Below are positions 4,186 to 35,092 of a stretch of DNA of 64,000 nt, piece by piece. Each line of letters begins with the position of its first letter. The first letter of the stretch is position 1. Source of the stretch: Octopus vulgaris (Eukaryota); the NCBI GenBank assembly GCA_951406725.2, contig OX597822.1, positions 83,514,001-83,578,000 of the forward strand, given 5' to 3'. Below the pieces are notes generated by a model. That model had not been told where the DNA came from. It ran no database searches and saw nothing but the letters and a program-made list of their open reading frames with translations. The translations under genes were made by a program, and so were the position numbers.

Positions 4186-5394
4186 GAATATGTAAATAAT
4201 GTACATAATTCTGACTACATTAAATGAAATTTTTTGTAAATTATACTAAAATACATCTAATCTCGGGGAAGTCTAGAAATTTCTCACAGATTATGGAGTC
4301 TTCCTAATCAGTTTGGGTAACTGGATTTAAGGAAGGAAAGAATATTTAATTCTGCCCTTGAAAGTTTTGTAATAAAATGAATGCATATTTATAGTCACGA
4401 GTAATAAATGAAAAATTAAAAACTTCAGTCTGATAGGCTGGAAGGAATCAGTAATATCGTTACAGAGTGAGAGCCTGGAGTATCAAATATTACTATATAG
4501 AAAGAATAACCATGTCACAGGCAGATTTTTTTTTAAATGCTACACAACTCCATGTATTGCAGCAATTGTTTCTTCTGTAATTTATATAACCTCCTAGGGG
4601 AATTAGAAGCTACAATATTATTATTTTAACACTTTTAAAGAATTTCTCAATAAGCTGGCTTCCAGCGCCCCATGGCGAATTTTAACTGTAACCTTGAACA
4701 AAAATAGGGCATATTTAAAAGTGTCATTGATATCACATTATTGATACAATTGCTGCTGGGTTAAAGTAAGTTTCTTTAAACTTTAATTTCAAGGAGACTT
4801 AAAGAGCTCTACGACCAGAAAAGTCTGTGCAAATGTAGTAAAAAAGAAAATTATAAGAAGAAATAGAAACAAGAACATTAAGATTAGTAAAGTGAGAGAT
4901 GTGTCGTAGGAACGACGACACCTTGAAACAATCGAGATTTTCTCTCATTACAGCAAAGTAATATACCTACGCTTTTGAATATATTTTGCCATTGACATAT
5001 CTGAATTCCGGTAGAGTGATTTCCGTTCGTATACACCCTAGCTTTCTAATATTTAACCGCAGATTTTATGACAAATATAACTTGTCTGATTGGAGAAGAT
5101 TACTTTACCGATCAAATTATTGCATCACGATAGAAAGTTCCGTAGTTACGGCACGACATATCGAGATTCAATGAGAATTTATTAACATCAAAGTCACCGT
5201 AATTGATAGCGATATAGCGATATATATAATTGTGAACCAACGAGATGGGCCGATACGTTATCGTTTGATCGAGAACACTTAACGGTAAAAGATCTCTAAA
5301 ACCAAACCCTACACTTTTATCTCAACAAAATAAATATTTAAATGATGAGCCATTTATACTCTACACATGAAAATATTTCACAGTTAAACTTTTG

Positions 5395-32014: not shown

Positions 32015-32399
32015 CTAAATCAACAATTTAAAAAAAATTCTCTGTGTTTACTTCCTCGTGTTCCGTTCTGTTGAAGAGCGTAGGTTCGTCAACGTAAATG
32101 ACTTTTTCATTTTCCCGAGCGTCAAACTAATACACCTTCTTGTTGTTCATACACCTGTCATCGTCTATTATATCTCTGTAAATTTCAACTACATACATAC
32201 ATACATACAAACATCGTAGCTGAAACCCTCGTTACACGATAAAAGTCATTGCCAAAAAAACTTATTGAAATGATTCATTATTGATGCCATGTGATGCCCT
32301 TATATGACTTTTAAACCCAGCCAAAGTTTTACACATTTTATTATATACAGCGCAAATGTGCTGGCTGGCAGGAGAAACAGGTGCCGCCGTATACACTTT

Positions 32400-32870
32400 C
32401 TTAACTTTTCAGATCTTCAGCTGAGAGAGACACCCTTCCACATTTTACACATGTTCTGTTGTGAATTGTAATAGCTACATCACTCTTTATCATGAGTCGA
32501 TTCCTGTGAGATTTTTGATGACTGACCAGGACTTCACGACTCAACCACCTCCTCTCGCAATCCACACACACAAAAAGTAACACTCCCTCACTCTCCACAG
32601 GTTCCCTTCTTCTAATTTCACTCGCATTTCTCTCATACTTCACTCTCTCTTCCTCAAACCCCAAACAACCACTATGCACTGACTTCCTCCATCCATCACG
32701 GTCTTGTGCCTCCCTCTCTCAATCACCAGCAGCAATTCCTGTCTGTATTAGAGCATTTTTAACGCCATCCTTAAACCTAAGTTTAGGTTTATGCGCTGGT
32801 CTCCTGCCATCTTCCAGCTCACCATAAAATAGCTGCTTGGGTAGTTTCTTATCACTCATCCGTAACACAT
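32400..32870 (-). mobile_element. RTE-clade LINE 3' fragment
   Basis: minus: VLRMSDKKLPKQLFYGELEDGRRPAHKPKLRFKDGVK...DRDGWRKSVHSG...CVDCERRWLSREVLVSHQKSH (RTE C-terminus plus C2H2-like finger). Confidence 0.9.
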
Positions 32871-32871
32871 G

Positions 32872-33525
32872 TTTTTCGTTATTTTTCATTAGTCCTGCCC
32901 GTTTACATTCTTGGCGTGTTGAATTCTTTAGTGGTGGATTCCCTTTGCGGATCTATTTCTAGCGTTAGAGTGACCACATGTGGTCTCTCTCTTATTACTT
33001 GTATTAATAATTTTTTCTGTATCACAGTTTTTTTACGCTAGGCCACTTGGTGTTTTAAATTGATGTTATTAATTAATATTCAATTTTTTTCACCCTTATT
33101 GTGATTTTAATTATGAATTAATATGTTCTCAAACTGGCAGTAAATTATTGGGGTAGTATTTACATCCGGTATTTTCAACGCGCCAGGAATGAGGATATTT
33201 GAACGTAACTACAAATATAATCGACTGTGCCGTTCGCCGTTGCTCGGCTTCGTATGGATTTTGGCGTTCGGTTCAGCAAATTATATTTTTGATATACTCT
33301 ACTGAGGATTCGAAAATGATTATGTAAGTAAAATTACACAATCTATTAACGATGAAACAATTGTATAGAGTTAATATATTTTTTCGTTATTTTTCATTTG
33401 TCCTGCCCGCTTACATTCTTGGCGTGTTGAATTAATGCTTGAGAACAATTCTTTAGTGGTGGATTCCCTTTGCGGATCTATTTCTAGCGTTAGAGTGACC
33501 ACATGTGGTCTCTCTCTTATTACTT

Positions 33526-33527
<2 letters not shown>
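32872..33527 (+). mobile_element. Partial tandem (1.3-mer) hammerhead-containing non-coding retroelement
   Basis: direct repeat 32872-33001 / 33380-33526 (offset 508 bp, 17-bp indel); hammerhead at 33296-33371; ends at (TA)n. Confidence 0.8.
33296..33371 (+). ncRNA. Minimal type-I hammerhead motif, intact core
   Basis: ACUCUA CUGAGGA UUCG...CGAU GAAA CAAUUG UA/ UAGAGU; perfect 6-bp stem I, palindromic ACAAUUGU, inner GAUU:AAUC and UGUAA:UUACA. Confidence 0.82.
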
Positions 33528-33570
<43 letters not shown>

Positions 33571-33574
<4 letters not shown>

Positions 33575-33782
33575 CTTTTTATACTCTTTTACTTGTTTCA
33601 GTCATTTGGCTGCGGCCATACTGGAGCACCGCCTTTAGTCGAGCAAATCGACCCCGGGACTTATTCTTTGTAAGCCCAGTACTTATTCTATCGGTCTCTT
33701 TTGCCAAACCGCTAAGTGACGGGGACGTAAACACACCAGCATCGGTTGTCAAGCAATGCTAGGGGAACAAAGACAGACACAA

Positions 33783-33857
<75 letters not shown>

Positions 33858-34023
33858 TACGACAGGTTTCTTTCAGTTTCCATCGACCAAATCCACTAAC
33901 AAGGCATTAGTCGGTCCGGGGCTATAGCAGAAGACAATTGCCAAAGATGCCACGCAATGGGGACTGAACCCGGAACCATGTGGTTGGTTAGCAAGCTACT
34001 TACCACACAGCCACTCCTGCGCC
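33571..34023 (-). mobile_element. Family-A tRNA-derived SINE, full length, internal (TA)n
   Basis: minus head ggcgcaggagtggctgtgtggtaag (A box), gggttcagtccc (B box); tail ctgaaacaagtaaaagag. Confidence 0.95.
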
Positions 34024-35092
34024 TATATATATAACTTTCTTTATCATTTAATTCTTTTTTTAACTCAGGATTTGTGGGAACGCCTGTTGTCTTGCCTCCG
34101 TGCGAGCTTGATATATGCAGCCTATCATACGATGCTACCTGCTTTTTCAACTAATATTTTCCTGATGATTCTGTCGGTGTTATAATTAACATAATTTATA
34201 ATAATTACTATATTTTATTTGGAAATAACATATTAGCGTTTAAAAGAGGAAGTTGTTTCAGAAAATACATTAAGCGAGATCAGCGTACTGTATTATTTAC
34301 ATAATTGTGAGAATGATAGTCGTATAACTTTGTCGTCTAATAATTTAGAAGGAAATATTAATTGCAATGTTCCAGTTGTATTCTTTTAGCAGTATGTCTT
34401 CCCACACGCTTTAGGTCTGTAATAGAAGATATTACATCTACACCTATGTTGCTCATAAATTCTAGCACAATATTATGCTATGGGGATTTCTTTCTTACAA
34501 GAAGCTGGAGTATATTTAAGAAAGGTAATGTGTTGTTTCTATTAACTAAGGAAGTCACTTCATGAAGAAAGAGGGGGAGAAAGAGAGAGAAAGAAATATA
34601 TTTAAAGGAGGGAAGAGTTAGTGGCGAAATAAGGAACGCTATACAGAATCACAGGAACGTTCAGCTCCTTATAATGAACAGTGAATTGAAGTGGGTTTTT
34701 TGTTAAAGCGAATGCTTTAAGGAAGGACGGTTTTGGGAATTGGTAAGGAGGTGACAGAGAAAAATGTATTTTGTTTTAACAAAAAATGTTTTCAAATGAA
34801 TTTTAGTTAATATGTTTTAATGCTTGCATCTTAGTGCAAGAAACTATCACCTTCTTCTAAATGAAAAGTGAATATTTATTTTATTCCATTAATTTTACAA
34901 AATATCGGCAATGAAAGAAAACATTTGATCATGAAAAAGAAACGAGATATATGTAAAAAAAAAAATAAAATACCAGTTACACATGGAGATGAGTCATAGA
35001 AGAGAGGAAAGAACAGATGAGGTCAACAAGTATATACAACAGATGAATGAAAGGGGAATTATTACTGCATTTAACCACAACTGTACATTTGT

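Follow-up and report, generated by a model that had tools for sequence, protein, structure and literature searches.

What kind of element leaves a short non-coding insertion that repeats part of its own sequence and carries a hammerhead ribozyme motif? Such an insertion lies in a 64,000-nt stretch of the Octopus vulgaris genome (contig OX597822.1), hereafter the window. The original prediction, made from the sequence of the window, described it as cDNA of a ribozyme-processed RNA, copied more than once round a circle or from a tandem template. We analysed the insertion together with its relatives in the genome. It is probably a copy, truncated at the 5' end, of a non-coding hammerhead family with a 525-nt unit (family A). 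This family is likely a non-autonomous Penelope-like element (PLE), that is, an animal non-LTR retrozyme, for which a PLE would lend the reverse transcriptase-endonuclease and (TA)n would be the target. The family is dispersed, its copies have two fixed 3' ends and form back-to-back arms with one of these ends each, and the fold is conserved by covariation.

Anatomy of the insertion

The features of the locus are listed in Table 1. Positions in the unit are numbered from q1 (window position 33003) to q525 (33527), and the predicted cut falls after q363.

Table 1. Features of the insertion and its flanks (window coordinates)
Feature	Coordinates	Strand	Remarks
Family A insertion	32872..33527	+	single 5'-truncated arm, q378-525 plus q1-525, about 1.28 units
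Partial upstream unit (q378-525)	32872..33002	+	private 17-nt deletion, two substitutions
Full 525-nt unit	33003..33527	+	3' limit is the fixed end E1
Type I hammerhead motif	33296..33371	+	predicted cut after 33365 (GUA)
'Tail', from E1 to the second fixed 3' end E2 (q105-113)	33003..33115	+	internal in the window copy
Predicted stem CTAGCG 32959-32964 / CGCTAG 33036-33041	32959..33041	+	spans the E1 junction; covaries in four families
(TA)n target microsatellite, (TA)21.5	33528..33570	.	directly 3' of the insertion
5' flank, decayed coding fragment, outside the element	32350..32871	-	weak zinc-finger Pfam match, E 0.00067, below cut-off
3' flank, two abundant short repeats, outside the element	33571..34030	.	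matched at 98 and 103 of 345 loci

The window copy is 96% identical to the family A consensus, the deletion counted. Its direct repeats occupy 32872-33002 and 33380-33527, and the second indeed begins 15 nt past the predicted cut (33380 vs 33365), as had been noticed originally. However, the start offset of 508 nt, originally given for the repeat, is not the period. The 17-nt deletion in the first repeat, flanked by two AATT words, occurs in the window copy only, and other copies retain the full 147-148 nt of the repeat; beyond the deletion the offset is 525, the true period. Two further original observations hold. The insertion adjoins (TA)n at its 3' end, and it has no long ORF: there are no stop-free frames of at least 100 aa within the window element, and on the family A consensus, treated as a circle, ATG ORFs reach 43 aa at most. 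The fixed end E1 would be the first start of reverse transcription.

At its 5' end the element meets the decayed fragment of the minus strand 5' to 5', and on that side both a TA tract and a target duplication are absent. We take this fragment to resemble the C-terminus of an RTE-type LINE. The two short repeats of the 3' flank are presumably SINE-like.

The hammerhead fold

As read from the sequence, stem I is formed by 33296-33301 and 33366-33371, and the core strands CUGAGGA and GAAA occupy 33302-33308 and 33354-33357. At the base of helix II, 33309 and 33353 form a U.U pair. Helix III consists of two pairs and has the palindromic loop AAUU. The motif had been called an intact hammerhead with a cut after 33365. 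This stands for the core, given the covariation over four families described below, but not as an unqualified statement, helix II being weak. In an Rfam search the region produced four weak matches, none of them to a hammerhead, and the matches listed for the whole window (150 of 201) were microsatellite noise. Covariation across the four families nevertheless supports the fold. When the ribozyme region is folded freely, the active form is not recovered (-9.0 vs -11.8 kcal/mol), a result that is uninformative.

Among 99 family A arms, the core is intact in 84. The 11 core positions have a substitution level of 1.5%, approximately the post-insertion level, as compared to 3.9% in loop II. Position N7 varies freely (G in 40 arms, A in 32, C in 25, T in 2), and the U.U pair at the base of helix II is retained in 98.

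Three sister families, B (501 nt), C (533 nt) and D (493 nt), were found, and pairwise identity among families A-D is 56-66%. In an alignment of 11 copies from the four families, 95.3% of cells are paired, a level reached in 0 of 500 shuffles, while structures slid along the alignment pair in at most 46%; these values count as support and not as a probability, since the sequences share ancestry and themselves supplied the structure. Both sides have changed in 13 of the 20 named pairs. This applies to all six pairs of stem I and to three of the six pairs in the stem over E1 (helix 4), where all scored cells are paired. The pair at the base of helix II is the canonical G-C in families B and C and U.U in families A and D. 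Thus the predicted hammerhead fold is conserved by compensatory changes in families A-D.

All four families also contain sequences resembling splice signals, GTAAGT in loop II (33324-33329 in the window) and YAG in the tail (33011-33027). An intron between them was considered and rejected: spliced copies of families A, C and D are absent in 396 loci.

Copies of family A and their 3' ends

The genome searched (2.8 Gb, 227 contigs) is rich in microsatellites. The search with family A produced 2122 first-look candidates, possibly including relatives, and 40 of them were scored. Three exact family A motifs had 110, 123 and 68 matches genome-wide (100, 100 and 68 of them listed) and their reversed controls had none; family A is not a chance similarity, because the first two motifs match 110 and 123 times against zero for the controls. 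Arms were mapped on a tandem reference, pieces with less than 82% identity being left out. This yielded 250 arms, later extended to 298 arms at about 177 sites, with a median identity to the consensus of 95%.

The 3' ends of the 250 arms are concentrated at two places: 116 are at E1 (q525) and 100 at E2, which lies at q105-113 of the following unit and was scored as q100-125. The remaining 34 are at other positions. E1 and E2 are approximately 110 nt apart, and neither coincides with the predicted cut; they lie 162 and about 275 nt past it, which argues that copying starts internally, as in PLEs. TA-rich sequence directly follows 157 of the 216 E1 and E2 ends. Inverted (5'-to-5') pairs comprise 174 of the 250 arms; the window copy is a single arm. 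Of 104 such pairs, 72 combine E1 with E2, three have E1 on both sides, none has E2 on both sides, and 29 have an irregular end. Family A insertions share with Penelope-like ones two fixed 3' ends with a one-sided tail, an inverted 5'-truncated arm, and a (TA)n target. At the level of sequence, the two ends, their pairing and the (TA)n flank are the 'tail' signature of Penelope.

These features suggest the following scheme. Firstly, a borrowed PLE enzyme would bind the structured E1-E2 region and nick both strands of a TA tract. Secondly, DNA synthesis would start at E1 on one side and at E2 on the other. Finally, synthesis would continue past the site of the ribozyme and enter the preceding unit, stopping at scattered places. 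The window copy would then be one E1 arm of 1.28 units.

The original prediction of a non-autonomous hammerhead retroelement copied beyond one unit is supported by the genome. Head-to-tail multimers, which it expected genome-wide, reach 2.18 units in family A and 12.8 in the sister families, and an ORF between the repeats, proposed as the mark of an ordinary PLE deletion derivative, was found in none of the family A copies examined. Among the 298 arms, 48 reach one unit and only the longest exceeds two. The window copy has one hammerhead; elsewhere in family A, six arms extend across two cut sites. The repeats of family A are partial tandems with variable 5' ends and not LTRs.

One rearranged family A insertion lacking a part of the hammerhead (L196:990-2890) exists as three tandem copies with a period of 594 nt. 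This triplication is probably a later DNA duplication.

The predicted cut and the 5' ends

The original prediction also tied the 5' end of the insertion to the ribozyme cut, and named a pile-up of 5' ends at the cleavage site as a check. Sample 1 consisted of 91 family A arms holding q446-470 (93 minus two local duplicates), 66 of them at risk. In 14 of the latter the 5' end falls within q359-383, a rate ratio of 2.2 (p 0.008 compared with a uniform rate), and 52 run through the cut. However, the end rate is uneven elsewhere as well: a different 22-nt interval has a higher score, and among 396 positions the cut ranks tenth for the size of its step. In an independent sample from an older subfamily of family A, three of 32 arms have such an end (rate ratio 0.76, p 0.75) and 29 run through. 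Ten other long arms reach the second cut, and four of them stop at q362-381, at most 20 nt past it (p about 0.013 for a comparison chosen after the fact); all four stops are at non-inverted junctions. The 5' ends of three of the 31 listed family C arms and two of the 32 listed family D arms are within approximately 20 nt of the cut; family B, with too few arms, was excluded from this test. None of 30 loci picked by a motif right after the cut began at the cut.

Hence neither the pile-up nor a role of the cut in setting the 5' end is established: most arms cross the cut, and the excess past it did not recur in the independent sample. This, together with the low counts in families C and D, makes the cut a minor source of 5' ends at most. 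The stop of the window copy 15 nt past the cut may reflect the end of a cleaved RNA, stalling on the fold at the ribozyme, or chance.

The same stops bear on the nature of the template. The same element and enzyme could have produced family A from linear tandem transcripts that had either escaped cleavage or been cleaved at the upstream ribozyme alone, without a circle. We regard this as a realistic possibility, although not the one we would choose. It agrees with the rarity of family A arms longer than 1.3 units, with the excess of ends past the cut in sample 1 and at the second cut, and with the use of mainly unprocessed RNA by a PLE in vitro (PMC11167929). On the other hand, the independent sample and the higher-scoring interval in sample 1 argue against it, as do the six arms that pass two cut sites, the rare variants common to both tandem repeats of one arm, and the 3- to 13-mers of the sister families.

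Sister families and the template

In family A, divergence is 3.7% between repeats within an arm, 3.2% between paired arms and 7.8% between random loci. Each insertion thus comes from one template, the divergence within insertions being below that of random loci, and some rare variants occur in both tandem repeats of one arm within one insertion. A doubly cut monomer cannot have served here, since the majority of arms extend across the cut and six of them do so twice. The balance tips slightly towards a cut-and-ligated circle as the template of family A; otherwise it would be a tandem transcript left uncut. As the arms are short, a short linear tandem transcript explains them equally well.

Families C and D were reached via the loose ends of contigs from sequencing runs that may be RNA. 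Family C (L307-L321) has a canonical GUC hammerhead and 569 exact motif matches, and is very young. In family D (L322-L326) the core is CCGAAGA (U4C) and helix II begins with U.U; multi-unit arms are formed nonetheless. Arms reach 12.76 units in family C and 5.62 in family D, in arrays selected for length; both families have the same two 3' ends and a scattered 5' phase, and tandem complete hammerheads are widespread in them. The first 100 motif matches comprise 38 arms in family C vs 93 in family A.

In many arrays of families C and D, every unit has variants peculiar to that array. For example, L311 has two such variants in five of five units, and L310 has two that occur in both of its arms. 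Variants in every unit require a one-unit bottleneck followed by repeated copying, and a circle provides both. Long C and D arms with array-specific variants are as predicted for rolling-circle copying, and a cut-and-ligated circle is likelier in these families than in family A, as far as sequence can tell. However, some variants occupy non-adjacent units (four of ten in L307, two of five in L322), a pattern not given by a single monomer circle.

Such variants could also be expected of multimers that formed only once the element was inserted, through duplication in tandem or gene conversion at the DNA level, the old family A arrays having since collapsed; the local triplication in family A is probably one example of such an event. 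We consider this origin improbable for the multimers as a whole: the longest arrays are the youngest ones (97-100% identity to the consensus), both arms of a pair can be multimeric, and the 5' ends of family A thin out with distance instead of being spread evenly over one unit.

Returning to copying from RNA, a tentative reading of all four families is that they preserve in the genome the traces of Penelope reverse transcriptase at work on circular ribozyme RNAs, which it would copy from two fixed sites simultaneously. The covarying structure over E1 would be the handle for the enzyme. Family A, in which the ribozyme is weak and the arms are short, would represent partly linear templates, and family C, with its canonical ribozyme and up to 13 units, full rolling-circle copying. 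If so, the proposed circular origin of PLE tandems becomes testable with defined RNAs.

In contigs from the runs that may be RNA, family A is represented by short pieces at a depth close to that of neighbouring repeats and with no spliced joint; such contigs are blind to ends and circles. Family C-type pieces have by far the greatest depth in two such runs, which is a lead only.

Candidate coding partners

Coding PLEs ending in (TA)n are abundant in the genome, and a search for GIY-YIG produced 148 matches among the 150 scored of 6136 first-look candidates. A young coding PLE (L094, L091-L106) has a 781-aa frame with reverse transcriptase and GIY-YIG, preceded by a stop-free frame of up to 479 aa; it forms partial tandems and has (TA)n ends. 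A relaxed hammerhead scan of L094 found none. A second coding PLE family (L107:5500-5700, L064:2370-2560) has a terminal repeat with a small hammerhead, in which the base of helix II is U.U and position 4 is C or U, and two 3' ends approximately 30 nt apart. No homology to families A-D was observed at 70 GIY-YIG loci (of the 6136 candidates) except for co-located copies of the families themselves, and the young 781-aa PLE was rejected as a homologous partner for this reason. The PLE partner would thus be known by type alone.

A Gypsy-type LTR retrotransposon with near-identical LTRs (L110:2520-8040) is inserted in stem I of a family A hammerhead. The ORF between the two family A pieces at this locus, considered as a coding partner, belongs to this inserted element.

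The unit could be the terminal repeat of a coding PLE, with the copies being truncated insertions or an ordinary deletion derivative and the ribozyme merely a passenger. Every end feature is indeed PLE-like, and animal retrozymes are related to PLE terminal repeats (10.64898/2026.07.22.740005). However, the units are joined head to tail without an ORF; the frame with reverse transcriptase and GIY-YIG expected between the repeats of an autonomous PLE is absent in the family A copies examined, and the sole ORF seen between two pieces is that of the LTR element. Moreover, the hammerhead core is conserved over 35-45% divergence. We consider this origin of the unit improbable and retain the non-autonomous element that would borrow its enzyme.

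Relation to known elements

Judged by its testable features, family A is a representative of a known kind, the animal non-LTR retrozymes: it has a short non-coding unit joined head to tail and a predicted type I hammerhead in each unit. Animal non-LTR retrozymes have been proposed to be mobilized by PLEs (PMC7229834, PMC4209133), and retrozymes have been argued to derive from PLEs (10.64898/2026.07.22.740005); following the latter source, 'retrozyme' and 'PLE derivative' are compatible labels, not alternatives.

The closest parallels are with axolotl Rtz_353/HHR_Amex2 (Cervera and de la Pena 2020, PMC7229834), which shares with family A non-coding tandem units of low GC content with one type I hammerhead each, a two-pair helix III with a tetraloop, and U.U at the base of helix II. 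The U.U variant HHR_Amex2 self-cleaves weakly as a monomer (22% in an hour) and better as a dimer, and its repeats form circles (PMC7229834). Like other animal non-LTR retrozymes, family A is predicted to give a highly paired circle (z -7.4 vs 30 shuffles). It differs from these retrozymes in the unit length (525 vs about 170-400 nt) and the long stem-loop II; in addition, most of its arms fall short of two units, a long target duplication was not seen, and the circle is a predicted one.

The vertebrate retrozymes described by Li, Clavereau and Pollet (10.64898/2026.07.22.740005) are likewise tandem hammerhead units co-occurring with coding PLEs, and their lengths of 51-972 bp span the 525-nt unit. 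The link to PLEs is of a different nature: in vertebrates it consists of co-occurrence and terminal-repeat homology, whereas in family A it consists of the anatomy of insertions, no homologous PLE having been found at the 70 loci examined. These authors call a retrozyme 'active' if it has two complete tandem hammerheads, and report no cleavage in vitro for eight of nine Xenopus retrozyme dimers, which weighs against our main reading.

Endonuclease-bearing PLEs (Frangieh et al. 2024, PMC11167929; Craig et al. 2021, PMC8557442; Cervera 2014, PMC4209133) resemble family A in having two internal starts downstream of the hammerhead, a one-sided tail, an inverted truncated arm, partial tandems, and AT or (TA)n targets. 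The inverted truncated arm and the tail at one end only are considered PLE hallmarks (PMC8557442). In vitro, a purified PLE protein cleaved AT-rich DNA on both strands and initiated at two sites inside the RNA, one on either side of the tail; ribozyme cleavage proved unnecessary (PMC11167929). Unlike these elements, family A has no ORF, and its tail is approximately 110 nt (about 100-130) as compared to the typical 30-40 nt (PMC8557442).

For the longer-than-unit copies that PLEs and animal retrozymes make, a circular template has been proposed (PMC4209133, PMC7229834), while the one in vitro study could dispense with ribozyme cleavage (PMC11167929). Families A-D bear on this as naturally matched substrates, in which start sites are predicted and arm length differs; the single window copy alone adds little. 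Literature searches listed no paper on cephalopod retrozymes, although supplements may include such families.

Other short repeats with hammerheads were observed at L064:420-900 and L329:1740-2630 (both on the minus strand), L342:1730-1860 and 4955-5190, L331, and L344. Two of them have tandem units of approximately 440 and 495 nt, and many more families exist.
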